A stretch of 64,000 bases of DNA from Desulfovibrionaceae bacterium (GTDB lineage Bacteria > Desulfobacterota > Desulfovibrionia > Desulfovibrionales > Desulfovibrionaceae): positions 98,435-162,434 of the forward strand of contig JACCQI010000001.1 of NCBI GenBank assembly GCA_015709315.1, in the 5' to 3' direction. This document shows, in pieces, positions 13,503-51,787 of the stretch. A model generated the notes under the pieces. That model saw only the letters and a program-made list of their open reading frames with translations, was not told the DNA's origin and made no database searches. The translations under genes and the position numbers were made by a program. Each line of letters begins with the position of its first letter. Positions within the stretch are counted from its first letter, which is position 1.

Positions 13503-13503
13503 C

Positions 13504-37011: not shown

Positions 37012-37196
37012 CAGTCTCGCTCGCTGTTTTCCAGGTTGAAGAGGTGCAGGCGGCGCTGGAGGAAATCGTCCCGCGTGCGGAACGTCCGGCTGGCGGCGTC
37101 GTCTTCGTAATCGTAAAATCCGGCCCCGTTTTTCAGGTCCAGCCGTTTCTTTTCGTCAGGGACGAGAGAAAGGATGCGCCGTCTTCGCTCTGCCAT
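37011..37196 (-). other. 61-aa ORF overlapping the larA start by 1 nt; possibly the C-terminal remnant of a 3-hydroxyacyl-CoA dehydrogenase-like gene
   Basis: …KKRLDLKNGAGFYDYEDD resembles the G(R/K)K.G.GFYDY C-terminal motif of hydroxyacyl-CoA dehydrogenases. No matching N-terminal domain lies upstream. Its TGA overlaps the larA ATG. Confidence 0.3.
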
Positions 37197-37436
37197 CCGT
37201 ATTCAGGCAGGGCGTTGACGGCCCCCAAAACGAAATTGACCATTGTTCCGCAATTGAAACGGAAGTTCCTTTCCATGACGTATTCTTTGGCAATGGTGCC
37301 CTGCCGTTCGGCGAAGCAGTCATTTACATGTTCTTTTTATTCGTTTTTTTCATGAATGTCAGCAAGGGAAGTATGATTTCGGAGAGGAAACGCACCAAGG
37401 CGGGGCCACGCGGCAAGCGGCCAGGACGTCGTTGAA

Positions 37437-37634
37437 ATGGTTTTGGCCGACCAGGACGGCTGGGACAGATACGAGGCGGCCAAATGGCTCACCATGCGCC
37501 GATGGCTTGATGCCAATCCCGGCGACGAATTGGCTGAAGAGGTCCGGGCCAAACTGGACTCGGAGCCCCAGCGGTACGCCGCCTACACGCGTGAATACCT
37601 GGGCTGGGGCGTGTTCGCACTGATGCGGCGGTGA
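37437..37634 (+). pseudogene. C-terminal fragment of a SAM-dependent methyltransferase-like gene
   Basis: The frame reads …GQDVVEMVLADQDGWDRYEAAKWLTMRRWLDANPGDELAEEVRAKLDSEPQRYAAYTREYLGWGVFALMRR. This is a C-terminal tail type I recall from class I methyltransferases. An in-frame stop at 37374 excludes any catalytic domain upstream. Confidence 0.4.
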
Positions 37635-37772
37635 TGCGGCGTATCAGTGCCGGGGGAGGCTGCGGACTTGTTATTCGTTTCTGCCGCCGTGAAAACGCGC
37701 GGACGAAAACAGCCGAGCGAGCTTGCTTCGGCGTCGAAAGGATGCGAAGGCGGATTGCCCCCGACGGCCGGG

Positions 37773-38381
37773 TCAGGACAGCGCCCTGATCGGGGTCACG
37801 CAATCCATGTTCCCCCACCGTTTGAAGTCTTTTCCCTCCACGCCGAATTCATGCAGGATTTTCCCCACGATATGATTGGTCATGTCGGAAACGGATTGCG
37901 GGTGGTTGTAGTATGTCAGCATGGGCGGCATGACGACGACGCCCATTTCGGCGAGGGAAAGCATGTTTCGCAGATGTATCGGGCTGAGAGGGGTTTCCCT
38001 GGCGACCACGACCAGCTTGCGCCGCTCCTTGAGGGTCACGTCCGCGGCCCGGAGGAGCAGGTTGTCGGAATAGCCCGTGCAGATGCCTGCCACGGTCTTC
38101 ATGCTGCACGGCACAATGGCCATGCCTTCGGTAACGAAGGTGCCGCTTGCGATATTTGCCCCGATGTCCTCCCGGTCGTACACCAGGTCGGCCAGGTCGG
38201 CCAGCCGCGACTCCGTGACGTGCGTTTCGTGTTCAAGGGTTCTGACGCCCGCCTTGCTGATGACGAGGTGCGTTTCCCAATCCGGGAGAGCCTTGAGGGC
38301 CTTGAGCAGCCCCAGGGCCAGGACCGAGCCGCTGGCACCGCTTATGCCGACGGTCAGGCGTTTTTTCTTGAGCTGAATCAT
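37773..38381 (-). CDS. ubiX: UbiX/Pad1-family flavin prenyltransferase
   Basis: RLTVGISGASGSVLALGLLKAL…HLVISKAG…MAIVPCSMKTVAGI…DNLLLRAADVTLKERRKLVVVARETPLS. Confidence 0.9.
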   Translation of the reverse strand: MIQLKKKRLTVGISGASGSVLALGLLKALKALPDWETHLVISKAGVRTLEHETHVTESRLADLADLVYDREDIGANIASGTFVTEGMAIVPCSMKTVAGICTGYSDNLLLRAADVTLKERRKLVVVARETPLSPIHLRNMLSLAEMGVVVMPPMLTYYNHPQSVSDMTNHIVGKILHEFGVEGKDFKRWGNMDCVTPIRALS

Positions 38382-38494
38382 TGTTTCCTCTTCGGTATTG
38401 AACGGGCAGGCCCTTCACCGCCGGGATAAAATGAACGCCGCCCGCGAGGCAGGGGCGGCGTCGGATGAACAGGCCTTTCGGGGAAAGCATTCGG

Positions 38495-39313
38495 CTACCG
38501 TCCTACAAACTGTTCCACAGCCTCGTCAATGTCCAAAGTGAATGAGCGGTCGGGAGCCTGGAACAGCCTGGAGGATTCGGCCGCGGCCAAAGGAATTTCA
38601 TACAGAAGCTTTTGGGAAAAGTATCTGTCCAGCCGCACCGTCGGGATGGAGCAGCTTATGGTGGCGATGATGTTCCCGGTGTCGTCGAACACGGGAGCGG
38701 CGGCACACCGGACTCCCTTGTAGAGCTCCTCGAAGTCGAAACCGATCCCCTTTTCCCGGACGCTTTCGATTTCCTTGTAGATATGGTTGATCATGTCGGT
38801 CGTGACGCTTGAATCGCTGCGCCGCAATTCCTTGATGAAGCGCCGCAGGTCGTCCTCCGGCAAAAAGGCCAGAAAGACCTTCCCGGAAGCGGAGAAATAG
38901 GCGGGAAAGGAGTCTCCGATGACGGAATCCATCTGGAGCGCATGGTCCGAAGTCACCTGATGGACGAGAACCATGTTCACGCCCGAGAGCACGCTTAGGT
39001 TGACGGTCTCGTTCACCTTGTCCCGCAGCTTGACGAGAACGGGCTTGAGGGTGGAGCTCAGATCGCTTTGGGAGGCTATCTGCTTGCCGATCTTCAGGAG
39101 CTTGAGCGTCAAGGCGTAGGCGCCGCCGCGTTCCAGCTGACGGACGTATCCCAACTCCTCCAAGGTTCGCAGGATGCGTTGCAGCGTGCCTTTGGGGATG
39201 GAGCACGCTTCATTGAGCGTCTTCAGTTTCCAGTTGCTCTTGGTCGCCATTGTTTCAATGACATAGAGAGCCTTTTCCAAAGAGCGCACCATAAAATACT
39301 TGTCATCTGCCAT
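38495..39313 (-). CDS. IclR family transcriptional regulator
   Basis: N-terminal winged HTH (RSLEKALYVIETMATKSNWKLKTLNEACSIPKGTLQRILRTLEELGYV) and a C-terminal IclR effector domain. Confidence 0.9.
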   Translation of the reverse strand: MADDKYFMVRSLEKALYVIETMATKSNWKLKTLNEACSIPKGTLQRILRTLEELGYVRQLERGGAYALTLKLLKIGKQIASQSDLSSTLKPVLVKLRDKVNETVNLSVLSGVNMVLVHQVTSDHALQMDSVIGDSFPAYFSASGKVFLAFLPEDDLRRFIKELRRSDSSVTTDMINHIYKEIESVREKGIGFDFEELYKGVRCAAAPVFDDTGNIIATISCSIPTVRLDRYFSQKLLYEIPLAAAESSRLFQAPDRSFTLDIDEAVEQFVGR

Positions 39314-39355
39314 TATCGTCCTCTGAGAATACGCTTTTCATTTTTTCTGATCCGG

Positions 39356-39392
39356 GGAAAAACCAAGGCTCTTCTACAGTAGGAAGAGCCTT
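39356..39392 (-). terminator. Rho-independent terminator after the BCCT gene
   Basis: The minus strand reads AAGGCTCTTC ctactgt AGAAGAGCCTT, followed by GGTTTTTCC. Confidence 0.6.
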
Positions 39393-39397
39393 TATTG

Positions 39398-40963
39398 TTA
39401 GTCATTTTCCCTTTCATTGTCTAGCCAATCGGGTTTTTTCAGCAATTCCATACCATCCTTCACAAGCGAAATGCACATGGCGAAAGTGAATAGCATCATT
39501 GGGAAACCGGCCAAGGATATCAAGCCGCGGACCGGCTCGATTCCTCCCGCTACGCACAAGACATAGGCGATGAGGCCGACCACGATTCCCCAGACGATTT
39601 TCAGGCGCTTGGGCGGTTCTTCGTTCACGTGGATTCCCTTGGTGGAAATGATCGCCAGGGTCGCTACCAGGGAGTCCGTCATGGTGGCGAACGAAAAGAC
39701 GATGGTGACGACGAACAATCCCATCAGGATTTTGCTGAAAGGGAACTGGGAAAGAAGGATGTAAACCATGGACTCCATGCCGAATTCGTGGATGCCCGAC
39801 CATACGTCCACCATGCCGCTCCACTGGAAGTACACCGCGGTTCCGCCGAAGGTCGAAATCCAGAAATGGCAGAAAACGGTCGGCGGGATGATGTTCACCA
39901 GGATGAACTGGCGAATGGTTCTTCCTTTGCCCATGCGCGCCAGGAAGTGTCCCAGCAGCGGGGCGAAGATGAAGAAAATCTCCATGTAGGGGACAAGCCA
40001 CTGCATGGGCCACTTGTCTTCGATCTGCATGGTGTTGAGCAGGGTGCTGTTGCGGAAGAAATTGTTGGCGAAATAGCCGAACGATTCCACGCCGAGGCCC
40101 AGTATGAACAGCGTGGGGCCTGCGAAAAGGACCAACGCCATGAAAAAGAAGAACGCCCTGGTGGTGCCGGTGGACAGAAAGCGCATGCCTTTCTTGAGGC
40201 CGGAATACGAGGACAGAATGTAGATCGGGATGATGATTGCCGCTGCGGCCGCCCATGTCCCGGGGCCCGGGGTATAATCGAAGATCCTGCCGGTGCCGCT
40301 GCCTATCTGCATGAGGCCGGCCCCCATGCTGGTGGCGATGGCGCAGCAGAGGGAAAAGAGACAGATGGCGTGTACGGTCGATGACAGGGCGGGGCGCCAT
40401 GACCGGGGGAAGATGGCGTACATTCCGGCGGCCACGGACAGGGGGGTGTTGCGGTTGTAGCTCACCAACCCGATGGCCACCGCGCATATGGTGTAAAAGC
40501 AATATTGGGCGATGGTCCAGTGCAGCGTGGTCTGGGCGATGGCAAAGACCCCGGCATCCTTGGAACCCGGCTCGATGCCCAGGCTGAGAGGCGGCTGCAT
40601 CATGTGATATATGGGCTCGCCCATGGCCCAAAAGAGAATTCCGATGCCGATGCATCCGCACAACGACAGGGCAAACCACTGCCAGAAGGTGAAGTCGGGC
40701 TTGGCGTCCTTGCCGCCGAACCGGATGTTGCCGATGGGAGAGAAGGCGATTCCCGCCGTGAACAGGACGATGATTATGCCCAGAGAGACTTCCAGCCATC
40801 CGAAGTTCACGTGTATCCAGCCCATGATTTCGCCCAGGACGACCGCAATGCGGTCCTGGTACGCCAGGCCCAGGGTTATCCCCGTTACCAAAAGCGTGAA
40901 TCCGGGCCAGAAAGTGAAGTGATTGAGTTTTCTTCGTTGGTCGATCTGTCGTGCCTCCGGCAT
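39398..40963 (-). CDS. BCCT (betaine/carnitine/choline) family transporter
   Basis: Trimmed to the ATG at 40963 after AGGAGGAG. There are twelve hydrophobic segments, and Trp-rich stretches (FWAMGEPIYH, TLHWTIAQY, WISTFGGTAVYFQW) are typical of BCCT carriers. Confidence 0.85.
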   Translation of the reverse strand: MPEARQIDQRRKLNHFTFWPGFTLLVTGITLGLAYQDRIAVVLGEIMGWIHVNFGWLEVSLGIIIVLFTAGIAFSPIGNIRFGGKDAKPDFTFWQWFALSLCGCIGIGILFWAMGEPIYHMMQPPLSLGIEPGSKDAGVFAIAQTTLHWTIAQYCFYTICAVAIGLVSYNRNTPLSVAAGMYAIFPRSWRPALSSTVHAICLFSLCCAIATSMGAGLMQIGSGTGRIFDYTPGPGTWAAAAAIIIPIYILSSYSGLKKGMRFLSTGTTRAFFFFMALVLFAGPTLFILGLGVESFGYFANNFFRNSTLLNTMQIEDKWPMQWLVPYMEIFFIFAPLLGHFLARMGKGRTIRQFILVNIIPPTVFCHFWISTFGGTAVYFQWSGMVDVWSGIHEFGMESMVYILLSQFPFSKILMGLFVVTIVFSFATMTDSLVATLAIISTKGIHVNEEPPKRLKIVWGIVVGLIAYVLCVAGGIEPVRGLISLAGFPMMLFTFAMCISLVKDGMELLKKPDWLDNEREND

Positions 40964-41113
40964 GTGCTCCTCCTGTTTGTCGGTGGAATCATCGTCATCG
41001 CGGCGTAGGTTGTTGCTCCTTAGCCCGACGGCCGTTCTTTGGGGAGAACGGCAGTTTTTAACGGAATTTTTTCTAGGCGTGAGTGTTATATGGACGCCGA
41101 ATTTTAATACTCC

Positions 41114-41129
41114 GTACCACTTTGTGGTA
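41114..41129. promoter_or_regulatory. Palindrome GTACCAC-TTT-GTGGTA in the divergent BCCT/oxidoreductase intergenic region
   Basis: TACCACTTTGTGGTA has perfect 6-bp arms. It shares the GTACCAC half-site with the site at 41394..41409. Confidence 0.35.
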
Positions 41130-41331
41130 AACGTAGGGCAACACGCGGATGATGTCAATGGCCTTTTTAAATTGTCTCGGTACAGTTCTCATAGGTCTGG
41201 TCGTATAGAAAAACCGCACTGGCATTGGGTTCAAGCTGACACTTCATATATTTAAGAGGCCGTAGATTTGTTGGAGATTGGGGTTGACGGGAATTTATGC
41301 GTGAGATAGTGTTCGAAAAAATGGAACTAGA

Positions 41332-41346
41332 TACCGTAATTCGGTA
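41332..41346. promoter_or_regulatory. Palindrome TACCG-TAATT-CGGTA
   Basis: Perfect 15-bp palindrome that fits TACC-N7-GGTA, like the site at 41115..41129. Confidence 0.35.
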
Positions 41347-41393
41347 CGCAATTCGACAGGTCAAGGACGGCAAATTTTTTTTACGCTTTTAAA

Positions 41394-41409
41394 TGGTACC
41401 TCGTACCAC
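41394..41409. promoter_or_regulatory. Palindrome TGGTAC-CTC-GTACCA(C), about 55 bp upstream of the oxidoreductase operon start
   Basis: Perfect 6-bp arms. It contains the same GTACCAC heptamer as 41114..41120. Confidence 0.35.
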
Positions 41410-41462
41410 GATGTGAAATTTAATTGCTTGGACGAACCGTAACAAATTCCATTGAGGTGAAT

Positions 41463-42533
41463 ATGACTCAGGAAACTTTGTTTTTGAAAAACACGGAAAC
41501 CTTTGCCGAGAGCTTGGCCCGTTGCGGAGTGAAATACCATTTCGCATACCCCATTACTCCGGCAACGGACGTCATGAAGAGGATGGCGGTCATCCTGCCC
41601 CAGTACGGCGGGCAGATGATGCAGATGGAAAGCGAGTTGGCGGTGTCCAGCGCGCTGGCCGGCGCGGCCTGCACCGGCAAGCTGGCGGCCACCTCCAGCT
41701 CCGGCCCCGGCCTGACCCTCATGCATGAGGCCATCGGCTTCATGTGCGCTGCGGAACTGCCTTGCATCGTCTTCGACTCCATGCGCGTCGGTCCCGGCGA
41801 CGGCGACATCCTGGGCGCCCAGAGCGACTACTACGTCGTCACCAGGGGCGGCGGGCACGGCGACTACCACACCATCGTGCTGGCTCCGTCCTCCGGGCAG
41901 GAGATCGCCGACATCATGCCCCACGGCGTGCGCCTGGCCTACAAGTACCGGGCCCCGGTCCTGTTCGTGCTCGACGGCGTGAGCGCCCAGACGACCGAAT
42001 CCACGACCCTCCCGGCATACAACGACTATTCCGCCGAGTTCGACACCTCCGAGTGGGCCTTCACCGGCACCAAGGATCACGCGAAGCGCGCGCTCATCAC
42101 CGGCAGCTACACCCACCAGGACGGCTACGAGATGAACGAGATGCTTCGCGCCAAGTACGAAGTGATCCGCAACAACGAACAGATGTGGGAGCAGGAGCAG
42201 GTCGAGGATGCGGAACTGGTCGTCGCCGCCTTCGGCATCCACGGCCGCATGTGCCGCGACATGGTCGCCAAGATGCGGGCCGAGGGCAGGAAGGTCGGGT
42301 TCATCCGGCCCATCACCCTGTGGCCTTTCCCGGACAACGCCTTCGAGGCCCTGCCGGAATCGGTGAAGAACATCCTGGTGGTCGAGATGAACCACGGGCA
42401 GATGGTCGATGACGTCCGGCTGGCGGTCAACGGGCGCGTTCCCGTTCACTTCATGGGCAAGACGGGCGGTGACCAGCCCATGCATACCCTGGCAGAAATG
42501 ATCACCGAAGCAAACAGAATCCTGGGGGAATAA
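41463..42533 (+). CDS. 2-oxoacid:ferredoxin oxidoreductase, alpha subunit
   Basis: Trimmed to MTQETLFLKNTETFAESLARCGVKYHFAYPITPATDVMKRM. The AYPITP motif is typical of OFOR alpha subunits. Confidence 0.85.
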   Translation: MTQETLFLKNTETFAESLARCGVKYHFAYPITPATDVMKRMAVILPQYGGQMMQMESELAVSSALAGAACTGKLAATSSSGPGLTLMHEAIGFMCAAELPCIVFDSMRVGPGDGDILGAQSDYYVVTRGGGHGDYHTIVLAPSSGQEIADIMPHGVRLAYKYRAPVLFVLDGVSAQTTESTTLPAYNDYSAEFDTSEWAFTGTKDHAKRALITGSYTHQDGYEMNEMLRAKYEVIRNNEQMWEQEQVEDAELVVAAFGIHGRMCRDMVAKMRAEGRKVGFIRPITLWPFPDNAFEALPESVKNILVVEMNHGQMVDDVRLAVNGRVPVHFMGKTGGDQPMHTLAEMITEANRILGE

Positions 42534-42536
42534 CTC

Positions 42537-43298
42537 ATGGAAAATCTCAGCTCTAAATACGGAAAAACCTTAAATCTGGACAAGTTGACCAGTTATTGCC
42601 CCGGCTGCGGGCACGGCATCGTGACCAGGCTTGTGGGCGAGGCCATCGAGGAACTGGGGGTCATGGAAAGGACCATCGCCGTCGTGGGCATCGGTTGTGG
42701 CGGGTTCTCCCACCACTACATGGACATCGACGCCATCGAAGCCACTCACGGCAGGTCTCCTTCCTTCGCCGTCGGCTACAAGCTGGCCATGCCGGAAAAC
42801 ATCGTCTTCACCTACGCGGGCGACGGCGACACCTGCGCCATCGGCCTCGGCGATCTCATGCATGCGGCCAACAAGGGCATGCCCATCACCACCATCATGG
42901 TCAACAACACCGTGTTCGGGATGACCGGCGGCCAGATGTCTCCCACCACCCTCGAAGGGCAGGTGACCGCCACTTCGGTCAAGGGCCGCGACATCTCCTC
43001 GCAGGGCTATCCCCTTCTGGTGCCGGAAATGATGCAGTCCATGGCCGGAGTCAAGTACCTGGCCAGGGAGAGCGTTGATTCCCCCAAGGCCATCCGCAAA
43101 GCGAAAAAAAGCATCAGGAAGGCATTCGAATGCCAGGTCAAGGGGCTGGGCTACGCCTTCGTGGAAGTCATCGTTCCCTGTCCGACCGGCCTCAAGATGC
43201 GGGTCAAGGACTCCTATGAACGGTGTGCCAACGAAATGACCGACTATTTCAAACCTCAGGTCTTCAAAGATGAAACGGAGCAAGGCGATGTTGCATAA
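42537..43298 (+). CDS. 2-oxoacid:ferredoxin oxidoreductase, beta (TPP-binding) subunit
   Basis: YCPGCGHGI, the GIGC cluster Cys residues and the TPP motif GDGDTCAIGLGDLMHAANKGMPITTIMVNNTVFGMTGGQ. Confidence 0.9.
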   Translation: MENLSSKYGKTLNLDKLTSYCPGCGHGIVTRLVGEAIEELGVMERTIAVVGIGCGGFSHHYMDIDAIEATHGRSPSFAVGYKLAMPENIVFTYAGDGDTCAIGLGDLMHAANKGMPITTIMVNNTVFGMTGGQMSPTTLEGQVTATSVKGRDISSQGYPLLVPEMMQSMAGVKYLARESVDSPKAIRKAKKSIRKAFECQVKGLGYAFVEVIVPCPTGLKMRVKDSYERCANEMTDYFKPQVFKDETEQGDVA

Positions 43299-43827
43299 AT
43301 GTATGTTTTCCGGGTCCGGCGGCCAGGGATCCGCGCTCATGGCGAAGATGGTCTGCCTCGGCGCAATCAAGGAAGGTCTCAAGGTCGTCATGACCCAGAC
43401 CTACGGCATTGAGCAGCGCGGCGGCGATTCCACCGCCTTCGTGATTGTCTCCGACGAGCCTATCGGCAGCCCCATCGTGGAAAACGATGCGGACATCGCC
43501 GTGGCCCTCAGCCAATCCATCTACGGCAACTGCTTCGAGGGCGTGGTCCCCGGCGGCACGCTCTTCACCAACACCTCGATCGTCGAGGAACCCGGTGATG
43601 CCGAAGGCTTCGAGCAGGTGCTCCTCCCCGTGTCCGACACCGCCGTGGAGCTCGGAACCGTTCGGTGCGCCAACATGGTGATGCTGGGCGCAGTGCTCGG
43701 CAAAACCGGGCTGCTGAAGCTGGAAACCGTGGAGGAAGTCGTCCGGGAGTCTTTCGGAGCGAAGAAGCCGAAATTGGTGGATCTGAACATTGAAGCGTTG
43801 CGTACCGGCTTCGCCGCAGTGAAATAA
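43288..43827 (+). CDS. 2-oxoacid:ferredoxin oxidoreductase, gamma subunit
   Basis: MFSGSGGQGSALMAKMV…MTQTYGIEQRGG. The start is ATG 43288 (11-nt overlap with beta) or ATG 43303. Confidence 0.85.
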   Translation: MLHKCMFSGSGGQGSALMAKMVCLGAIKEGLKVVMTQTYGIEQRGGDSTAFVIVSDEPIGSPIVENDADIAVALSQSIYGNCFEGVVPGGTLFTNTSIVEEPGDAEGFEQVLLPVSDTAVELGTVRCANMVMLGAVLGKTGLLKLETVEEVVRESFGAKKPKLVDLNIEALRTGFAAVK

Positions 43828-43838
43828 GGAGTTTGAAA

Positions 43839-44051
43839 ATGGCTGAAAAACGTCATGTTATCGATGCCCGCCGCTGCAAATCCTGCGAGTTGTGCGTGGA
43901 AAAGTGCCCCAAGGGCGTTCTCGAACTCGGAAGCGCGATCAATGGCCAGGGGTACAACTATGTTGTGCAGGCACACCCCGAGAAATGCGTGCTTTGCGAC
44001 ATCTGCGGGATCGTCTGCCCTGATATGGCTATTGGTGTCGTCGTCGAATAA
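43839..44051 (+). CDS. 2x[4Fe-4S] ferredoxin-type delta subunit
   Basis: ATG at 43839, 7 nt after AAGGAG (the track used TTG 43833). Cluster motifs CKSCELCVEKCP and CVLCDICGIVCP. Confidence 0.85.
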   Translation: MAEKRHVIDARRCKSCELCVEKCPKGVLELGSAINGQGYNYVVQAHPEKCVLCDICGIVCPDMAIGVVVE

Positions 44052-44108
44052 TACTGCAATCCCATCCCCGGAACGCTCCGGGGATGGGACTTTTCAAGGA
44101 GTTTTCCC

Positions 44109-46256
44109 ATGAGTGATCTGGTCCCTCTGTTTCAACCCAAAAGCGTCGCCCTGATCGGTGCTTCTTCCAACTCGAAGAAGTACGGCTACTGGACGGCGAA
44201 AAGCCTGGTTGAAAATAAATTCGAAGGGGATATCTATCTCGTTTCCCGTTCCGGCGGAGAGCTGTTCGGCCAGCCGACCTACCCGGACATTCTTTCCGTT
44301 CCCGGCGAAGTCGATCTGGCGATCATCGCCATTGCCCCCAAGTTCATCCTGCCGGTCATGGAGCAGTGCGTGGAGAAGGGCGTCAAGTGCGCCATCGTGG
44401 TCTCCACCGGGTTCGGCGAAGTCGGCCCGGAGGGCAAGGAGCTTGAACGGCAGATGCTGGAAATCGCCCGCAAGGGCAACATGCGCGTACAGGGTCCCAA
44501 CTGCATGGGCACCTACAGTGCGGCCAAGAGCATGAATGCGAGCATCATCGACCTCGCGCCCGGCCCCATGAGCCTGGTTCTCCAGAGCGGCAACTTCGGC
44601 ATCGACATCAACTTCAACGCCAAGTCCAGGAACCTCGGCTACAGCTGCTGGGCCACCATCGGCAACCAGATGGACATGCGGTTCCACGACTTTGTCGAAT
44701 ACATCGAGACCGACGACAACACCAAGGTCCTTCTCCTGTACATGGAAGGGCTTCGCGTCGAGAGCGAGGAAGACGGCCGCAAGTTCCTCGAGGCCGCCCG
44801 GAAGACCGCCGTCAAGACGCCCATCGCCGCCATCAAGATCGGCCGGAGCGCCGCAGGCGCCCGCGCCGCCGCCTCCCATACCGGATCCCTGGCCGGCAGC
44901 GAAAAGATCTTCGACGCCGCCCTCAAGCAGGCGGGCATCATCCGTGTGGACAGCCCCGGCCAGCTTTTGGACGCGGCCGAGGCGTTCTCCAAGTGCAAGC
45001 CCGCAAAGGGCAACCGCATAGCCATTCTGACCGACGGCGGCGGGCACGGCGTCATGGCCACCGACTTTGCCGAGAAGTTCAACCTTGAAGCGCCGGTGCT
45101 TTCCGAGGCCACCCAGGCCAAGCTGCGGGAAATTCTGATGCCGCATTGCCCCATCAGGAACCCGGTGGACCTGGCGGGCACGCCCGAAGCGGACATGTGG
45201 GTCTTCGACCGCTGCCTGGAAGTCCTTCTGGACGATCCGGACGTGGACGGCATCGTCATCGTGGGATTGTACGGCGGCTACGCCGACCTGTCAGAGGAGT
45301 TCCGCGTTCTGGAAATGGACGTGGCCAAAAGCATGGTCGAAAAGATCGCCGCGGGCGACAAGGCGGTCGTCATGCACTCCATTTACGAGCCCCAGAATCC
45401 CGAATGCCTGAACTACATCCGCGAAAACGGCGTTCCGGTCTTCGGCGAAGTGGATGCCGCCGTGCGGACCATGGGATTGCTTTCCGGCTACAGTGACATT
45501 AGGAAGGCCCTGCAGGAGGAAGCCGGCGAGGAATTGCCGGAAATGCCTTCCGACCGCAAGGAAAAGGCCGCGGCCATCATCGATGCCGTGAGGACGGCCG
45601 GGCGCGTGAATCTCGTCGAGACCGAGGCCCGGGAAATCCTGCGGTGCTACGGCCTCAAGATCACCGAGGACTATCTGGCCACCAATGCGGACGAAGCCGC
45701 CGAGTTCTACCGGAAGATTGGCGGCAAGGTGGTCATGAAAATCGTGTCTCCCGACATCCTGCACAAGACCGATGCCGGCGGCGTGGCCCTGGGCATCGAG
45801 TCCGAGGACAAGGCGCGCGAAGCCTTCGACCAACTGGTCAAGAATGGCCGCCGGTACAGGTCCGATGCCGACATCTTCGGCGTCATGATGACCGCCATGC
45901 TTCCGGCCGGCGTCGAGTGCATCATCGGTTCGAGCTATGACAACACCTTTGGACCGACCGTCATGTTCGGCCTCGGCGGCATCTTCGTCGAGATCCTCAA
46001 GGACGTGGCCTTCCGGGTGGCTCCGGTGAACATGCCTTCCTGCCGGAGCATGGTCCGCGAGATCAAGGGCCTGGGAATGCTCCAGGGCGCACGCGGCAGC
46101 AAGCCCTGCGACCTGGAGGCGTTGGCCGAAACCGCCTGTGTCATTTCGCATCTCGTGAACGAGCTGCGCGACATCGCGGAGGTCGATCTCAACCCCGTAT
46201 TCGCACAGGAAAAGGGCCTGGCCATTGCGGACGCCAGAATCGTCCTGCACGACTAG
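44109..46256 (+). CDS. ADP-forming acyl-CoA synthetase (fused alpha/beta; NDP-forming acetyl-CoA synthetase family)
   Basis: CoA-binding N-terminus PKSVALIGASSNSKKYG, succinyl-CoA-synthetase-like ligase domains including the phospho-His segment SHTGSLAG, and a C-terminal ATP-grasp domain (VVMKIVSPDILHKTDAGGV). Confidence 0.85.
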   Translation: MSDLVPLFQPKSVALIGASSNSKKYGYWTAKSLVENKFEGDIYLVSRSGGELFGQPTYPDILSVPGEVDLAIIAIAPKFILPVMEQCVEKGVKCAIVVSTGFGEVGPEGKELERQMLEIARKGNMRVQGPNCMGTYSAAKSMNASIIDLAPGPMSLVLQSGNFGIDINFNAKSRNLGYSCWATIGNQMDMRFHDFVEYIETDDNTKVLLLYMEGLRVESEEDGRKFLEAARKTAVKTPIAAIKIGRSAAGARAAASHTGSLAGSEKIFDAALKQAGIIRVDSPGQLLDAAEAFSKCKPAKGNRIAILTDGGGHGVMATDFAEKFNLEAPVLSEATQAKLREILMPHCPIRNPVDLAGTPEADMWVFDRCLEVLLDDPDVDGIVIVGLYGGYADLSEEFRVLEMDVAKSMVEKIAAGDKAVVMHSIYEPQNPECLNYIRENGVPVFGEVDAAVRTMGLLSGYSDIRKALQEEAGEELPEMPSDRKEKAAAIIDAVRTAGRVNLVETEAREILRCYGLKITEDYLATNADEAAEFYRKIGGKVVMKIVSPDILHKTDAGGVALGIESEDKAREAFDQLVKNGRRYRSDADIFGVMMTAMLPAGVECIIGSSYDNTFGPTVMFGLGGIFVEILKDVAFRVAPVNMPSCRSMVREIKGLGMLQGARGSKPCDLEALAETACVISHLVNELRDIAEVDLNPVFAQEKGLAIADARIVLHD

Positions 46257-46290
46257 CCATCATATCAACCTTTAATGAAAGAGTTGCATC

Positions 46291-47616
46291 ATGAAAGACG
46301 TAAAGCTTTTCCCCACTACCACCGGCCAGAGCTGGCTGGAAATGTCGGCTTACAAGAATCATGCGTTCAAGGACGCCTCCGCCATCAAGGATGAATACGA
46401 TTTCGTGGTCATCGGCGCGGGCTACGGGGGACAGGCTGCGGCCAGGCATTTGTCCGAACTGCATCCGGATTCCAAGATCGCCGTCTTTGAAGCGATCAGG
46501 ATCGGCGACAACGACAGCGGCAAAAACGCCGGCTTCATCATCGACGTTCCGCACGACTTCGGCGACCAGGGGGCCTCTTCCTTTGAAGAGAACAAGAAAT
46601 ACTTCGAGTTGAACACCTTCATCATCAAGTGGATGGAAGACACCATCAAGAACAACGGGATAGAAGATGTCGACTGGGATCACTGCGGAAAGTATCTCTG
46701 CTGCGCGGAGGAAAAAAGCTTCAAGCTGATCGAGCACGAAGTCGATGAACTCAAGCGGATGAACTGCTCGTACGAGGTCGTCGAGGGAGAGGAACTGCGC
46801 CGCCGCACCGGCACCTCCTACTACAAGAAGGCGCTCTACACCGCCGGAACCGTGCTCATCAACCCTGCGGACGTCCTGCGCGGCCTGTTCTCCGTGATGC
46901 CCGAAAACGTGGATGTCTTTGAAGAGTGCCCGGTCATGCGCATCGACGAAGGCAGCCCGACCAGCATCGCCCTGCGGAACGGAAAGCGGGTCAAGACCAA
47001 GTTCGCGCTGGTTACCGGCGGCCCCTTCATCCCCCAGTTCGGCATCGGCAACAAGGTGTTCTGCCCCGTGCTTTCCTACGGCGCGTTCACCCGTCGGTTC
47101 ACCGATGAGGAGATGCGGCATTTCGCAGGCGTCAAGCCCTGGGGCTGCACCGCCGGCCATCCGGCGGGCACGACCGTCCGCTTCACCCGCGACAACCGGA
47201 TCTTTGTCCGCAACGGGTTCTCCTTTGCCACCCATCTCACCACGTCCCACCAGCGCATCCAGCGGGCCATCCCCAAACTGCGCAAGGCGTACGAAAACCG
47301 TTACCCGGAACTCAAGCACGTCAACTTCGAGTACGTGTATGGCGGCATGATCAACATGACCATGAACTTCCGTCCCCTGATGATGCAGCAGAACTCCACC
47401 GTTTTCGCTTCCGCCAGCGGCGAGGGAGCGGGCGTGGCCAAGACCAGCCTGTGCGGATACTACCTGGCGGAATGGGTCAGCGGCATGTTCAGCGACGAAC
47501 TGACCTTCCTGCGGAACATCTCCACGCCCAAGCGCCTGCCGCCCGAGCCGTTCCTCACCATGGGCGCCGAAGCCAGGCTCATGATTGAAGAGTTCTGCGC
47601 CAAGAAAGAAATCTAA
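46291..47616 (+). CDS. FAD-dependent oxidoreductase (DAO / amine or amino-acid oxidoreductase family)
   Basis: Dinucleotide fold DFVVIGAGYGGQAAA. The length (441 aa) and overall pattern resemble glycine/D-amino-acid oxidase-type or PuuB-type enzymes. The substrate is unknown. Confidence 0.75.
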   Translation: MKDVKLFPTTTGQSWLEMSAYKNHAFKDASAIKDEYDFVVIGAGYGGQAAARHLSELHPDSKIAVFEAIRIGDNDSGKNAGFIIDVPHDFGDQGASSFEENKKYFELNTFIIKWMEDTIKNNGIEDVDWDHCGKYLCCAEEKSFKLIEHEVDELKRMNCSYEVVEGEELRRRTGTSYYKKALYTAGTVLINPADVLRGLFSVMPENVDVFEECPVMRIDEGSPTSIALRNGKRVKTKFALVTGGPFIPQFGIGNKVFCPVLSYGAFTRRFTDEEMRHFAGVKPWGCTAGHPAGTTVRFTRDNRIFVRNGFSFATHLTTSHQRIQRAIPKLRKAYENRYPELKHVNFEYVYGGMINMTMNFRPLMMQQNSTVFASASGEGAGVAKTSLCGYYLAEWVSGMFSDELTFLRNISTPKRLPPEPFLTMGAEARLMIEEFCAKKEI

Positions 47617-47708
47617 CCCCCTCACCCTAGCCAGCTCCTGGTCAACCGGAAGGATGCCGCGCCCCCGGCATCCTTCCGGCAGGAGCCCCACACTCCAAGG
47701 AGGACGAA

Positions 47709-48086
47709 ATGGAATTCATCAATTCCCCGGAATCAGCTGAAGTCGTAGGCCCTTACAGCCATTGCGTGAAGGCCGGAAATACCTATTACACATGCGGTCA
47801 GGTTCCCTTCCACCCCGTGACCGGCGAGGTCGTCGGCCTGACCATCAAGGAACAGGCTTTTCAGACCCTCATCAATCTGAAGATGGTTCTGGACGCGGCC
47901 GGACTCGCAATCTCGGACATAGTCAAAGTGAATGTTTTTTTGACCAGCATGGACGACTTTGACGGGTTCAACGAAATCTATGCCGACTTCATGGGAAACC
48001 ATCGCCCGGCACGCATGTGTTTGGCGGCCGGTGAAATCGCCCACGGCTGTCTGCTGGAGTTGGATGTAATCGCCTGCAAGGAATAG
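47709..48086 (+). CDS. ridA: RidA (YjgF/YER057c/UK114) family enamine/imine deaminase
   Basis: VVGPYSHCVKAGNTYYTCGQVPFHPVTGEVVG…VKVNVFLTSMDDFDGFNEIY…PARMCLAAGEIAHGCLLELDVIA. Confidence 0.9.
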   Translation: MEFINSPESAEVVGPYSHCVKAGNTYYTCGQVPFHPVTGEVVGLTIKEQAFQTLINLKMVLDAAGLAISDIVKVNVFLTSMDDFDGFNEIYADFMGNHRPARMCLAAGEIAHGCLLELDVIACKE

Positions 48087-48142
48087 TTGCGTTGAACTAA
48101 AATGCAATTATTTCAATTAATTTATTACCGAAAACGAGGTCA

Positions 48143-49495
48143 ATGATGGCACCTAACGGACAGAACTGTATCAGTTTTGAAGATGCTCCTTTTTCCCCCG
48201 TTCATAAGAAAATCGCAGTGGGCACCTTCATGGGCCAGATTTGCGACGGGTATATCCTCGGCATTGTCGGCATTGCATTGTCTTACGCAACGGGCGCTCT
48301 CGGCCTGGACAGTTTCTGGATGGGGCTGATAGGAGCCGGTGCCCTCTTCGGAATTCTCTTCGGAAGCCTGCTCACCGGCATCATCATCGACCGCATGGGC
48401 AGAAAGGCGGCTTACACTCTCGTATCGATCATCATTCTTGTCCTGTCCGTCGCTCAGTTCTTCATTTCGGACGCGACGATTCTGGTGACGGTCCGGTTCC
48501 TTCTCGGCATGTGCGTCGGCGCGGACTACACCGTGGGCGTCGCCCTGCTCAGTGAATGGACTCCCGAAAAAATCCGCACCAAGATGATGAGCTGGCTCAT
48601 GGCCGCCTGGACCTTCGGATACATCATCTCCTACTTTGCCGGTTTCTTCATCGCCTCCCTGGGCGATCTCGGCGACAACGGATGGCGTTGGATCATCAGT
48701 TCCTCCGCCGCGTTCGCGGCGATCACCCTGGTCCTGCGCCTGGGTTCCCCGGAATCCCCGTCCTGGGTTCAGGCCAAGAAGGGCGCGGGCGCCGCCCTGG
48801 AGCTGATTCATCGGTACATCGGCAAGAATTACGCCTTGCCCGAAGTGAAGGAAGAAGCCAAATCCGCCTCCTTCTTCAGGCTGTTCAGCCCGGAGTTGTG
48901 GCGCAACACCGTTACCTCCTGCACCTTCTTTCTGTGTCAGGTCCTTCCCTTCTTCGCCATCTCCATCTTCCTGCCCGTGGTCGTCGAGGGCCTTCACATC
49001 TCCAACCCCCACGCCTCCGGCATGATGTACAACGGCTTCACCATGGTCGGCGTCATCATCGGCATCCTGATTGCCGGGAAGATATCCCGCCGCGCGTTCC
49101 TGATGTGGACGTTCTACGGCGCGGGTGCAATCCTGGCCGTCATGACCGTCTGGCAGGGCATGCCGGCCACCATGGCCTTCATCCTGCTGGGCGCCTTCTC
49201 CACCGTGCTCGCCATCTCCATCGTCGCCGAATGGCTGTATCCGCCGGAACTCTTCCCCACGGAACTCCGTGGTTCCGGCGTGGGCCTGACCATTGCCGCA
49301 AGCCGCATCGGCGCGGGCATGGGGACCTGGATGCTTCCGGTCGTCACCGAGCAATACGGCGTTACGGTCACCCTGGCATGCTGCATCGCGGCCCTGGTCC
49401 TCGGCGGCGTCGTCTGCCAGCTCCTGGCTCCCGAAACCTCGCCCCGGTTTGTTTCCCGCAAATCGATCGGCGCGGCCAGCTGCGCAAAAGCGTAA
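48143..49495 (+). CDS. MFS transporter (metabolite/sugar:H+ symporter-like)
   Basis: Twelve hydrophobic segments. MFS motif A GIIIDRMGRKAAY and a second-half motif PELFPTELRGSGVG. Confidence 0.85.
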   Translation: MMAPNGQNCISFEDAPFSPVHKKIAVGTFMGQICDGYILGIVGIALSYATGALGLDSFWMGLIGAGALFGILFGSLLTGIIIDRMGRKAAYTLVSIIILVLSVAQFFISDATILVTVRFLLGMCVGADYTVGVALLSEWTPEKIRTKMMSWLMAAWTFGYIISYFAGFFIASLGDLGDNGWRWIISSSAAFAAITLVLRLGSPESPSWVQAKKGAGAALELIHRYIGKNYALPEVKEEAKSASFFRLFSPELWRNTVTSCTFFLCQVLPFFAISIFLPVVVEGLHISNPHASGMMYNGFTMVGVIIGILIAGKISRRAFLMWTFYGAGAILAVMTVWQGMPATMAFILLGAFSTVLAISIVAEWLYPPELFPTELRGSGVGLTIAASRIGAGMGTWMLPVVTEQYGVTVTLACCIAALVLGGVVCQLLAPETSPRFVSRKSIGAASCAKA

Positions 49496-49516
49496 GGACA
49501 TACGATATAACCTCCA

Positions 49517-49552
49517 GGCAATGCCCTCCGGTTTCGGCTGGAGGGCATTGCC
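49517..49552 (+). terminator. Rho-independent terminator ending the catabolic operon
   Basis: 13-bp perfect stem ggcaatgccctcc / ggagggcattgcc. The T-tract that follows is weak (GCCCCCGTTTAT). Confidence 0.6.
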
Positions 49553-49632
49553 GCCCCCGTTTATCAGCCCAGAACAAGCCGTCGTTCCCGCGGGACAGTG
49601 CCGTCACGGGGTTTTTGAAGCCGGAGCAGAAC

Positions 49633-50799
49633 GTGATTCGCAAAATATGGATCAATTGCAGCGAGGCGTCCGGCGACATGTGTGCGGGCGCTCTTGCCGG
49701 GGAGATTCGTCGGCAAAGCCCGGCCGTAGCGATAAGCGGCATGGGCGGACCGGCGCTTTCCGCTGCCGGGGCCGAGGTGCGGTTTCCCATGAGCCGCATC
49801 TGCTTTTCCGGCTTTCGCGACGTCCTTTTCGGCCTGCCGGGCGTATTCCGCTTGCAGAGGGAGATAGCCGGAGTCTGGGAAAAGGACCGCCCGGACGCGG
49901 TCGTGATGGTGGATTGCCCGGACTTCAATCTGCCGTTGGCAAAAACAGCACACTCGTTGGGAATCCCCGTATATTACTTCATTGCCCCGCAGTTCTGGGC
50001 GTGGAGGCAGCAAGGCATCAGGACCATGCGCGAATGCGTGAGCAGGATCTGTTGCGCGTTGCCGTTCGAGCCTCGATATTTCAGGAACCGTGGCTGTCGG
50101 GCGCAGTTCGTGGGGCACCCGCTTCTCGACATCATCCCCCTGCAATCCCTGGATGGATTGGCCCCGGACCCGTCTCGCATAGGCATCATGCCGGGAAGCC
50201 GGGGAAAAGAGATTTCCTTTTTGCTCCCGGTGTTCGCGGCGGCCGCAGCCAGGCTGTACCGGGACAATCCGTCGCTGACGTTCCATATCGCCCGCGCACC
50301 GGGCATCCAGCGGGACTTTCTTAAGAGGTTCTGGCCGGAAAACCTGCCTGCGGCCGTTGTGGAACCTGAGGGCAGGTATCGCATGATCAGGCAATCCTGC
50401 CTTATGCTGTCCGCTTCGGGCACGGCCACGCTCGAAACCGCGCTTATCGGAACGCCGACCATCGTCGCCTACAAGCTGGACCGGCCTGCGGCCTATATCG
50501 CGCGCAAACTGGCTTATTCCAAATTCATCAGCCTGACCAACATCCTGTTTCAACGGGAAGTGTTTCCCGAACTGCTGCAGGAACACGCCACGGCGGACAA
50601 TTGCTGCCGACAGGCGGCGGCATGGCTGCAACGCCCCGAAGCGCTCGGGCGGTTGCGAAACACGTTGCGGGAAGTGCGCGCCATCGCAGGTCCGCCTGGC
50701 GGCCTGAGGGGCGCGGCAAAGGCAATTCTGAGGCGGCCGGGTCCGGTGATGTCTCGCCCCTCGGCGGCCGGGGCAGGGTGGGAATTGCAGGAATCCTGA
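49633..50799 (+). CDS. lpxB: Lipid-A-disaccharide synthase
   Basis: GTG at 49633. IWINCSEASGD…DAVVMVDCPDFNLPLAK…PVYYFIAPQFWAWRQ…CALPFEPRYF…FVGHPLLD is collinear with E. coli LpxB as I remember it. The first 359 codons of track ORF 48556..50799 are a spurious extension. Confidence 0.85.
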   Translation: MIRKIWINCSEASGDMCAGALAGEIRRQSPAVAISGMGGPALSAAGAEVRFPMSRICFSGFRDVLFGLPGVFRLQREIAGVWEKDRPDAVVMVDCPDFNLPLAKTAHSLGIPVYYFIAPQFWAWRQQGIRTMRECVSRICCALPFEPRYFRNRGCRAQFVGHPLLDIIPLQSLDGLAPDPSRIGIMPGSRGKEISFLLPVFAAAAARLYRDNPSLTFHIARAPGIQRDFLKRFWPENLPAAVVEPEGRYRMIRQSCLMLSASGTATLETALIGTPTIVAYKLDRPAAYIARKLAYSKFISLTNILFQREVFPELLQEHATADNCCRQAAAWLQRPEALGRLRNTLREVRAIAGPPGGLRGAAKAILRRPGPVMSRPSAAGAGWELQES

Positions 50800-51567: not shown

Positions 51568-51758
51568 GAGATATCCTCCATGAAGTCGGGGTCGCAGCCA
51601 TGGCCGCCGTCCGCCGATATTCGGCGGGCGGGGCGTGAACCGGCGAAAGCGCCACCTCTGCCGCAATATCCCAAAGAGCGGTCGGAAGCGCAAGTGCAAA
51701 CCATTATTATTTGCTTCGGGGCGCGATCCAACGGGACAGGGATTCGGGAGGCGCGCTG

Positions 51759-51787
51759 AAAAAAGGCCCCCTTCGAAGGGGGCCTTT
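51759..51787 (-). terminator. Strong rho-independent terminator after the octahaem cytochrome gene
   Basis: The minus strand reads AAAGGCCCCC ttcgaa GGGGGCC, followed by TTTTTT. Confidence 0.8.

Follow-up and report, generated by a model that had tools for sequence, protein, structure and literature searches.

A predicted IclR-controlled gene cluster of Desulfovibrionaceae for the proposed ATP-yielding, ferredoxin-linked catabolism of an amino acid with a cationic 2-oxoacid

What solute is consumed by a gene cluster that joins a carrier of the BCCT family to a FAD-dependent flavoenzyme of the DAO family, a RidA imine deaminase, a four-subunit 2-oxoacid:ferredoxin oxidoreductase (OFOR) and an NDP-forming acyl-CoA synthetase? 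We addressed this question for a cluster in a 64,000-nucleotide stretch of DNA from a Desulfovibrionaceae bacterium (assembly GCA_015709315.1, contig JACCQI010000001.1, positions 98,435 to 162,434; hereafter the window, 64 kb). Comparison of sequences indicates that it is most likely a catabolic regulon under repression by IclR, which serves an amino acid with a positively charged 2-oxoacid. A first-pass annotation of the window had read from these genes a route in which a solute is imported and oxidised by FAD to an imine, RidA hydrolyses the imine, the OFOR acts on the resulting 2-oxoacid, and an ADP-forming synthetase conserves ATP. All computational tests that we ran agree with this route: the synthetase is linked to the OFOR in 28 of 28 modules, the OFOR, synthetase and RidA residues are intact, the flavoenzyme is paired with RidA, and one palindrome stands at both transcription units. 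The general sequence of FAD oxidation, RidA, OFOR and synthetase is the firmer part of this reading and we consider it probable; its weaker part, that the substrate would be a D-proline- or hydroxyproline-type imino acid or an N-methyl derivative, we put forward tentatively, as a proposal that falls just short of an even chance.

The linkage was examined by a survey that combined homologue neighbourhoods, a species-level genome scan, a metagenome scan by synthetase alignment and tblastn panels; collapsing the modules at 97% synthetase identity left 28 non-redundant modules on public contigs. In all 28, a synthetase relative (at least 54% identity) lies directly behind the four OFOR genes. The companions are RidA (22 modules), an MFS carrier (20), the flavoenzyme clade (19), IclR (16), BCCT (14), a UbiX-family flavin prenyltransferase (10) and proC (10). 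The presence of a BCCT carrier, which had been called unusual, is no exception within this cluster family. Synthetase relatives below 38% identity were generic, and only one of them (locus L146) lay near a distant OFOR (42-44% identity). Three gene orders were seen: the window type, in which UbiX-IclR-BCCT diverges from OFOR4-synthetase-DAO-RidA-MFS; the Bilophila type, in which MFS diverges from OFOR4-synthetase-DAO-RidA-BCCT-IclR-UbiX; and the order MFS-DAO-OFOR4-synthetase-RidA-MFS-(IclR)-proC of a clade at 50% identity (hereafter the 50% clade). Gene content is thus retained while order shuffles between clades, a classic sign of functional coupling. The cluster occurs in Desulfovibrionaceae, including sulfate reducers, the gut pathobiont Bilophila wadsworthia, gut Desulfovibrio and marine members. 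Furthermore, in a library clustered at 50% identity the OFOR alpha subunit formed one full-length representative and a few fragments, and the next nearest representatives were at most 45% identical. An OFOR that forms so tight and separate a subfamily, and is invariably followed by the synthetase, is not a housekeeping enzyme, as the first-pass reading also required.

The features of the cluster, from left to right in the window, are as follows:

37773-38381, minus strand: UbiX-family flavin prenyltransferase (NCBIfam NF004685, TIGR00421), last gene of the BCCT-IclR-UbiX unit
38495-39313, minus strand: IclR-family transcriptional regulator (Pfam HTH_IclR and IclR_C)
39365-39392: hairpin with an 11-bp stem between the BCCT and IclR genes, followed on the minus strand by GGTTTTTCCC
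39398-40963, minus strand: BCCT-family carrier of an atypical subfamily (Pfam BCCT, 7e-113)
41115-41129: operator-like palindrome O1, TACCACTTTGTGGTA, overlapping the promoter-like site of the BCCT gene
41284-41312, plus strand: predicted sigma-70-type promoter of the OFOR operon (TTGACG, 17-nt spacer, TAGTGT)
41332-41346: operator-like palindrome O2, TACCGTAATTCGGTA, between this promoter and the OFOR alpha start codon
41463-42533, plus strand: OFOR alpha subunit (Pfam POR_N and PFOR_II)
42537-43298, plus strand: OFOR beta subunit, binding thiamine diphosphate (ThDP) and a [4Fe-4S] cluster (Pfam TPP_enzyme_C)
43270-43827, plus strand: OFOR gamma subunit (Pfam POR, 1e-38; TIGR02175, 83.1 bits against a cut-off of 81.1)
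43833-44051, plus strand: OFOR delta subunit, a 72-residue 2x[4Fe-4S] ferredoxin with two CxxCxxCxxxCP motifs
44109-46256, plus strand: fused alpha-beta NDP-forming acyl-CoA synthetase (Pfam CoA_binding_2, Succ_CoA_lig, ATP-grasp_5)
46291-47616, plus strand: FAD-dependent amine/amino-acid dehydrogenase of the DAO/GR2 fold (Pfam DAO)
47709-48086, plus strand: RidA imine/enamine deaminase (TIGR00004, 118.8 bits against a cut-off of 106.25)
48143-49495, plus strand: MFS carrier (Pfam Sugar_tr and MFS_1)
49621-50799: lpxB (TIGR00215), downstream of the cluster

All ten genes of the first-pass annotation were recovered with Pfam and NCBIfam on the strands it had given, and two amendments were needed. 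The divergent unit, described as BCCT and IclR, is longer by the UbiX gene, which had been overlooked. The four OFOR subunits are present, the delta subunit being the 72-residue ferredoxin, whose Cys motifs read CKSCELCVEKCP and CVLCDICGIVCP and whose orthologues in loci L001, L003 and L004 match Pfam Fer4. An 85-residue open reading frame (ORF) that overlaps it (43855-44112, plus strand) has no Cys motifs and no family match, and was rejected as delta subunit. Another spurious long ORF (48556-50799, plus strand) overlaps the MFS carrier and lpxB; such ORFs are typical of high-GC DNA and could mislead an ORF-based reading. The true start of the BCCT protein is MPEARQ, the ORF listed to 41158 being an upstream extension. 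Intergenic gaps in the plus-strand unit run from -29 to 92 nt and are compatible with a single operon. The nearest homologues, at 85-92% identity, are from Pseudodesulfovibrio and related Desulfovibrionaceae, and an Rfam scan of 37000-50000 found no credible riboswitch or leader RNA.

The active-site sequences of the OFOR bear on what this operon degrades. Its alpha subunit has the YPITP motif (in FAYPITPATD) and the arginine that binds the carboxylate of the substrate, Arg108, which aligns with Arg344 of StOFOR1 alpha; its beta subunit has the ThDP motif GDG-X25-NN (GDGDTCAIGLGDLMHAANKGMPITTIMVNN) and, in CPGCGHG, GIGC and PCPT, the four Cys ligands of the proximal [4Fe-4S] cluster. With the NCBIfam VorB model NF005507 the alpha subunit scored 383.1 bits, below the cut-off of 399. 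In StOFOR1 the side-chain pocket consists of alpha Ser41, Thr349 and Asp468' and beta Lys49 and Leu123; the substitution K49I abolishes 2-oxoglutarate use and T349L has little effect (PMC5020499). The window enzyme has Phe (in GIGCGGFSHHYM) at the Lys49 position, kept in 53 of 57 module loci, and Met at that of Leu123; KorB and MmOGOR (8ys5, 6n2n) have Arg at the Lys49-equivalent position. The Phe and the lack of a basic residue suggest that the substrate is not 2-oxoglutarate. In addition, the substrate loop reads RVGPGDGDI in place of the canonical R(G/S)GPSTG, which puts Asp113 at the StOFOR1 Thr349 position and adds Asp115. Of the 120 nearest homologues, 115 have this loop unchanged, as do all module variants down to 54% identity. 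Among the readable loops of the 150 nearest 50%-identity representatives, the commonest in other OFORs were GPGLG(N/S/G/T) and GPSTG; GPGDGD, seen in the full-length representative and two fragments of this subfamily, was otherwise limited to one protein at 40% identity, and two further representatives had related acidic forms. VorB-like relatives have Leu and Asn where the two aspartates stand. The first-pass annotation had held that nothing in the sequence identifies the substrate; the pocket, together with the neighbourhoods described below, does provide clues, and the substrate that we propose is inferred from them. The 2-oxoacid is probably not a small or hydrophobic one, and more likely carries a cationic group.

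The enzymes on either side of the OFOR in the proposed route were examined in the same way. In the synthetase, the phosphohistidine sites His257 (SHTGSLAG) and His552 (ILHKTDAGGV) are invariant in the synthetase alignment A2. No NCBIfam equivalog cut-off was reached; the best solved relative, matched over the full length, is the ADP-forming 4-hydroxybutyrate-CoA ligase 8wzu (1e-130), and DddX (7cm9) is more distant (2e-65). As 4-hydroxybutyrate is isosteric with gamma-aminobutyrate (GABA), this match would lend weak support to a proline theme. RidA has the segments GPYSH, PAR(M) and LELD, whose Tyr, Arg and Glu we take to be its active-site residues. The Pfam DAO domain of the flavoenzyme spans residues 37-395, and Gly42, Gly44 and Gly47 of its GxGxxG motif are invariant. 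Its AlphaFold2 model (pLDDT 90.7) gave Foldseek matches at 12-18% identity to glycine oxidase, L-amino acid deaminase, sarcosine oxidase beta, N-methyltryptophan oxidase, proline dehydrogenases and the D-arginine dehydrogenase DauA, with query-normalised TM-scores of about 0.6-0.7 to glycine oxidase, sarcosine oxidase, L-amino acid deaminase and proline dehydrogenase. Profile search and Foldseek returned generic amine-oxidase relatives only, phmmer against the PDB returned nothing, and the DadA models did not match. A tblastn search of a plasmid collection found unannotated 'FAD-binding oxidoreductases' at 38% identity or less and no characterised opine or hydroxyproline oxidase. An apparent fusion of DAO with an alanine-racemase C-terminal domain (P0045) lay on a 4.9-kb low-coverage contig that held no informative neighbours, and was not used. 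The flavoenzyme is paired with RidA across phyla, and in a neighbour-joining tree without support values the flavoenzymes that accompany an OFOR form a single clade. The cluster encodes no electron-acceptor partner for the flavoenzyme; the acceptor is perhaps a quinone.

Both units appear to answer to one regulator. The 15-bp palindrome TACC-N7-GGTA has only two matches in the window, both in the divergent intergenic region, against 0.13 expected, and the column of the first (O1) is conserved in an alignment of six related intergenic regions. One match overlaps the minus-strand promoter-like site of the BCCT gene (41130-41101), and the other follows the OFOR promoter-like site, whose GGGGTTGACG is invariant in the six aligned regions; a third, degenerate copy lies at about 41402-41416. 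Twelve related loci from several genera (Pseudodesulfovibrio-type contigs, Bilophila, gut Desulfovibrio, the 50% clade and locus L108) carry the palindrome as well, 67-143 nt ahead of OFOR alpha, and in related loci it also precedes the divergent carrier. It is absent from LysR-type variants of the module. In M. ferrireducens it precedes, by 128 nt, a BCCT gene that is 7 kb away from the cluster and whose product is 84% identical to the window BCCT; its presence before this remote gene indicates that the carrier belongs to the same regulon. The IclR protein, which reached no NCBIfam equivalog cut-off, has an N-terminal HTH_IclR and a C-terminal ligand domain, and a predicted palindromic operator stands at both promoters. 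From these patterns we infer that IclR represses both divergent units at TACC-N7-GGTA and that the BCCT is a regulon member. Separate transcription of BCCT and of IclR-UbiX is suggested by the hairpin that lies between the BCCT and IclR genes and resembles a terminator or an attenuator.

The BCCT carrier is of an unusual type. Solved BCCT structures, those of DddT among them, match it (up to 1.8e-62), and the NCBIfam betaine, choline and carnitine models all scored far below their cut-offs. The motif FYWAWWISW of transmembrane segment 8 (TM8) is replaced by PYMEIFFIF in the window and by VYMGAFFAY in Bilophila; an aromatic Phe or Tyr is retained at two tryptophan-box positions, which we assume to correspond to those of BetP in its numbering. 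The IclR- and DAO-linked BCCTs that we examined show a comparable change, and among the 120 best matches the canonical motif was present in 0 of the 76 with an extractable TM8 segment. Members of this subfamily (P0241-P0360) come from Desulfovibrionaceae, Desulfoluna, a Gottschalkiaceae bacterium and many unnamed metagenomic sequences, and carry no informative names. The BCCT of variant locus L072, found together with MttB, is canonical. The TM8 sequence fits a cationic substrate, which need not be a trimethylammonium compound. The MFS carrier weakly resembles aromatic-acid/metabolite:H+ symporter subfamilies and is 44% identical to the MFS of Pseudomonas DAO-MFS-RidA clusters and 45% identical to the MFS beside a proline-racemase-superfamily (PRS) gene in locus L099. 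The UbiX protein scored 252.8 bits with NF004685 (cut-off 188) and 227.9 with TIGR00421, and is 40-46% identical to the flavoprotein of the Bilophila and Maridesulfovibrio clusters. Its gene takes three different positions in different genera, and searches of the window and of all the OFOR-cluster loci found no UbiD-family partner.

Neighbourhoods of related modules offer clues to the identity of the amino acid. The flavoenzyme clades nearest to that of the window (45-50% identity; neighbour-joining tree, no bootstrap) sit in clusters that yield 2-imino or 2-oxo acids. A Desulfovibrionales metagenome-assembled genome (L069) has a sigma54 regulator, then genes for a dihydrodipicolinate synthase (DHDPS)-family protein, RidA, aldehyde dehydrogenase and DAO, then a BCCT-like stretch not called as a gene; locus L009 has DHDPS-RidA-DAO-MFS; and Mesorhizobium (L006) has DHDPS-DAO-OpuAC ABC transporter, with an HpbD-like enolase, MttB and a Rieske protein nearby. 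These three contexts match the known layout of the D-hydroxyproline pathway and its extension to hydroxyproline betaine and proline betaine (HpbD and others). There a cis-4-hydroxy-D-proline oxidase/dehydrogenase of the DAAO superfamily (LhpB/HypO) acts first, and a DHDPS-family deaminase and alpha-ketoglutarate semialdehyde dehydrogenase complete the route (PMC4113996, PMC3950512). The DHDPS-family deaminase of pyrroline-4-hydroxy-2-carboxylate and the aldehyde dehydrogenase that stand beside these sister-clade flavoenzymes are absent from the window.

The fourth such context is that of MetNIQ-type importers in Succinivibrio. There (L010, L013, L016), flavoenzyme homologues at 38-42% identity lie inside MetN-MetI-MetQ-type importers, sometimes in two copies per locus, and an M15 D-Ala-D-Ala carboxypeptidase-like gene adjoins them; these loci may serve salvage of D-methionine or a related D-amino acid.

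Modules with OFOR, synthetase and RidA that lack a flavoenzyme of the window type (L108, L071, L111, L072 and L121) show other front ends. In L108 it is a different DAO, and in L071 and L111 a PF01593 amine oxidase with MttB. L072 has a canonical BCCT, MttB and DgcA/DgcB-like demethylase genes: its first 17,400 nucleotides (1-17400, in a 6-Mb Desulfobacterota genome) hold the BCCT, OFOR4, synthetase and MttB, two DgcA-like old yellow enzyme flavoenzymes flanking a GlcF/DgcB-like Fe-S protein, RidA and another FAD protein, which suggests stepwise N-demethylation upstream of the module. L121 has two PRS genes, an enolase nearest to cis-3-hydroxyproline dehydratase/HpbD, an ABC importer, and MttB with a corrinoid protein. 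This metagenomic operon (1379-22142) runs AFOR ... PRS-RidA-OFOR4-synthetase-enolase-ABC importer-MttB-corrinoid protein-PRS, and has the appearance of an anaerobic pathway for (hydroxy)proline betaine in which no flavoenzyme is needed to supply the same OFOR-synthetase pair. A PRS orthologue (69-74% identity) stands beside three different architectures (L099, L111, L121); in its one full-length copy, that of L099, the catalytic pair is Ser/Cys. One study of the superfamily characterised a single member with this pair, a 4-hydroxyproline 2-epimerase (PMC4113996). Furthermore, proC is operonic in the 50% clade, lies 2 kb downstream in the closest relatives of the window, and is syntenic 2-9 kb away in others. 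Taken together, the DHDPS-type sister clusters, the PRS genes, the HpbD-like enolase and the operonic proC of one clade favour a proline-type substrate.

Glycine-reductase genes were also seen next to the cluster. In Bilophila wadsworthia (L064/L065/L008, about 15400-21300) they abut it, as a split selenoprotein GrdA, thioredoxin, GrdD, GrdC, thioredoxin reductase and GrdB, and GrdC/GrdD adjoin the sister DHDPS-RidA-aldehyde dehydrogenase-DAO cluster in L069. This adjacency could be due to chance or to a Stickland-like pairing.

On the reading that we prefer, the solute would be taken up by the atypical BCCT, the MFS carrier or both, and the FAD enzyme would oxidise its alpha C-N bond to give a 2-imino acid; a proline-type substrate would give delta1-pyrroline-2-carboxylate or the 4-hydroxy form. 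RidA would assist hydrolysis to the open 2-oxoacid, for example 5-amino-2-oxopentanoate, which the four-subunit OFOR would decarboxylate to an omega-aminoacyl-CoA with reduction of ferredoxin. The fused ADP-forming synthetase would then release an omega-amino acid of the GABA type with one ATP, and one of the two carriers may export this product or exchange it for substrate.

Several points weigh against this scheme. UbiX has no place in it. RidA is, to our knowledge, an enzyme of acyclic 2-imino acids, and we know of no established role for it on cyclic pyrroline-2-carboxylates. The equilibrium of pyrroline-2-carboxylate favours the ring, and 4-aminobutyryl-CoA is prone to lactam formation. 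D-Ornithine would give the same 2-oxoacid as D-proline, and other basic amino acids would fit the acidic pocket equally well. The argument from the two aspartates rests on their position and not on a proven determinant, given the small effect of T349L in StOFOR1. The fold matches of the flavoenzyme model indicate no substrate, and the proximity of proC could reflect ancestral synteny alone. Moreover, the cluster in the window holds no racemase or epimerase, no MttB and no proC, and searches of the whole 64 kb for MttB, Dgc, Grd, PRS, enolase, DHDPS and proC genes found none.

The main rival keeps the route and changes the substrate. A basic or quaternary alpha-amino acid (D-ornithine, D-lysine, D-arginine or N-epsilon-trimethyllysine) would give a 2-oxoacid that keeps its omega-ammonium group, and from it GABA, 5-aminovalerate, 4-guanidinobutyrate or delta-valerobetaine, with ATP. 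Such compounds suit the acidic and aromatic OFOR pocket, and their acyclic 2-imino acids suit RidA well; the BCCT lies within the regulon, DauA is among the Foldseek matches, and for D-ornithine even the 2-oxoacid is that of D-proline. However, the PRS genes, the HpbD-like enolase, proC and the DHDPS-type sister clusters indicate proline chemistry and not that of lysine or arginine, and the BCCTs of the cluster lack the canonical tryptophan box that is used for trimethylammonium groups. We judge this explanation unlikely.

Glycine betaine offers another source for the 2-oxoacid. Dimethylglycine, sarcosine or glycine derived from it would be oxidised at the alpha carbon to glyoxylate and a methylamine, the OFOR would yield formyl-CoA, and the synthetase would yield formate and ATP. 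In favour of it, the regulon includes a BCCT, the OFOR-synthetase pair of L072 stands with a canonical BCCT, MttB and DgcA/DgcB-like genes, and in both Bilophila and L069 the cluster is bordered by glycine reductase genes. Glycine oxidases, which also oxidise sarcosine, are the closest matches of the flavoenzyme in both sequence and fold. Yet glyoxylate has no side chain, which is hard to square with two invariant Asp and a Phe in the OFOR pocket, and an OFOR that acts on glyoxylate with CoA is not known to us. Proline-type compounds are favoured by the contexts with PRS, enolase and DHDPS genes, and MttB and Dgc genes are missing from the window. On balance a glycine betaine pathway seems improbable.

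We give the same low standing to the oxidation of ordinary D-amino acids such as D-alanine or D-methionine, which would lead through pyruvate or another neutral 2-oxoacid and its acyl-CoA to acetate or another acid, with ATP. The pairing of DAO and RidA resembles the dad operon of Pseudomonas, the Succinivibrio homologues lie within MetNIQ-type methionine importers, a metagenomic homologue (P0045) is called as a protein fused to an alanine-racemase C-terminal domain, and the OFOR alpha subunit scores just below the VorB cut-off. Against this, VorB-like relatives have Leu and Asn at the positions of the two Asp, the flavoenzyme does not match DadA models, a BCCT is unexpected in a regulon for neutral amino acids, and Desulfovibrionaceae already own pyruvate:ferredoxin oxidoreductase and Pta-AckA for pyruvate.

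It is very unlikely that the pathway runs differently from what we have drawn, with a synthetase that consumes ATP to make the CoA ester of an imported betaine-like acid. The ATP-dependent dimethylsulfoniopropionate (DMSP) lyase DddX belongs to the same superfamily and is a detectable relative, whose own cluster has a linked BCCT carrier; the synthetase of the window is nevertheless far closer to ADP-forming ligases, it always stands behind the OFOR in the classic arrangement of substrate-level phosphorylation, and FAD-dependent amine oxidation with RidA makes sense only upstream of a 2-oxoacid. Lastly, that the OFOR is a housekeeping pyruvate or 2-oxoglutarate enzyme beside the other genes by chance, as the generic name 'pyruvate/2-oxoglutarate ferredoxin oxidoreductase' from some sources might suggest, is already contradicted by the invariable co-occurrence and the conserved content despite rearrangement, the predicted operator common to both units, the absence of a basic residue for 2-oxoglutarate and the tight OFOR subfamily, all other OFORs being at most 45% identical, and its probability is negligible.

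We also considered whether the cluster was acquired, which the first-pass annotation had suggested from a lower GC content judged by eye. The GC content is indeed lower, at 58.6% against 63.7% in the left and 61.9% in the right flank, a dip to which a 500-bp intergenic region at 44% GC contributes. However, GC at third codon positions is 0.64-0.87 in the cluster genes and overlaps that of flanking genes (0.79-0.88), and the cluster with the downstream lpxB is collinear with seven related Pseudodesulfovibrio-type contigs, so that a recent acquisition is not supported. The patchy distribution among genera and the rearranged gene order are compatible with older transfers.

Other genes of the window lie on both sides of the cluster. 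To its left (34337-37011, minus strand) is a LarA-type nickel-pincer malate racemase of the LarAH6 family (NF052593, 542 bits, cut-off 500), adjoined by a malic enzyme gene with which it overlaps as the ORFs are called; the two may form a pair for D-/L-malate utilisation. To its right (50869-53766, minus strand) are consecutive genes for a PF00174 molybdopterin-binding oxidoreductase, a multihaem cytochrome c and a NapC/NirT-type tetrahaem cytochrome, a trio that looks like a periplasmic redox module; relatives have proC after lpxB at this place. A hybrid histidine kinase with a Tll0287-like sensor and receiver and Hpt domains (54073-56346, plus strand) appears unrelated to the cluster.

If the preferred reading is right, sulfate and sulfite reducers would gain substrate-level ATP and low-potential electrons from abundant nitrogenous solutes, namely collagen-derived hydroxyproline and proline and the proline betaines of plants and marine organisms. 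We know of no anaerobic oxidative route for such proline-type solutes. Bilophila wadsworthia and gut Desulfovibrio carry the cluster, which could influence the choice of dietary compounds that sustain H2S producers and of the neuroactive omega-amino acids or betaines that these bacteria release. Because the cluster occurs in Bilophila and across marine and gut Desulfovibrionaceae, we rate its interest as moderate to high. The acidic-loop OFOR subfamily, the BCCT subfamily without a tryptophan box and the predicted IclR operator that would define the regulon are handles for experiment; the conserved UbiX without a UbiD partner in the cluster loci is a puzzle.

Full-text literature searches for the cluster or for the chemistry predicted from it turned up no publication in which it is described. 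Five features appear to be undescribed so far: the front end of FAD enzyme and RidA, the OFOR subfamily with its acidic loop, the atypical BCCT, the operator and the link to UbiX. All of the gene families are already known, as is the logic by which an amino-acid-derived 2-oxoacid passes through an OFOR to substrate-level phosphorylation. The most specific form of our proposal is an undescribed oxygen-independent, ATP-yielding pathway of Desulfovibrionaceae, including Bilophila wadsworthia, and of some other Desulfobacterota, by which proline- and hydroxyproline-type imino acids, and betaines after MttB demethylation, would become GABA-type omega-amino acids, with a new GPGDGD class of OFOR for cationic 2-oxoacids, a new BCCT subfamily, an IclR that recognises TACC-N7-GGTA and an unexplained requirement for UbiX. 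In this full form it is possible, and we would sooner expect it to need revision than to hold throughout.

Among known systems, the amino-acid fermentation of Pyrococcus and Thermococcus employs POR, VOR, IOR and KGOR with the acyl-CoA synthetases ACS I/II. The cluster shares with it a four-subunit OFOR followed by an NDP-forming acyl-CoA synthetase, with reduced ferredoxin and one ATP per 2-oxoacid. It differs in that the 2-oxoacid would come from a FAD dehydrogenase and RidA, and not from a transaminase or glutamate dehydrogenase, in that the synthetase is one fused alpha-beta chain and the OFOR has the acidic GPGDGD loop, and in that the genes form one regulated catabolic operon with carriers. 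In Clostridium scatologenes, HpdDEFG, HpdJ and HpdK are a p-hydroxyphenylpyruvate:ferredoxin oxidoreductase, a phosphotransacylase and a kinase (PMC13285125). That system, too, has a dedicated OFOR module within a catabolic cluster and takes an amino-acid-derived 2-oxoacid to an acid with conservation of ATP. Its ATP is formed through an acyl-phosphate by two enzymes, whereas an ADP-forming synthetase is found here; the Hpd substrate is aromatic, and the flavoenzyme-RidA front end and the BCCT belong to the present cluster and not to Hpd. The pathway for D-hydroxyproline and hydroxyproline betaine is close in another respect, as sister flavoenzyme clades (45-50% identity) occur in its layout and PRS genes lie beside some OFOR modules. 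In the window the OFOR and synthetase take the place of the DHDPS deaminase and aldehyde dehydrogenase, and the pathway would be oxygen-independent and ATP-yielding, ending in an omega-amino acid and not in 2-oxoglutarate.

Pseudomonas operons of the dadA-ridA-dadX type unite a FAD-dependent D-amino acid dehydrogenase with an imine deaminase of the RidA family. The pairing of a FAD flavoenzyme with RidA is common to both, whereas the flavoenzyme here is no DadA orthologue, there is no racemase, an OFOR and synthetase follow downstream, and the host is an anaerobe. Finally, CaiT-type BCCT carriers and DddX/DddT are cases in which a BCCT is tied genetically to the CoA-level metabolism of a charged small solute. 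The BCCT described here differs from them in the absence of the canonical TM8 tryptophan motif, its synthetase partner is nearer to ADP-forming ligases, and no lyase chemistry is indicated. What it has in common with these carriers is the link to CoA-level metabolism, and a mode of exchange between substrate and product is conceivable for it as well.

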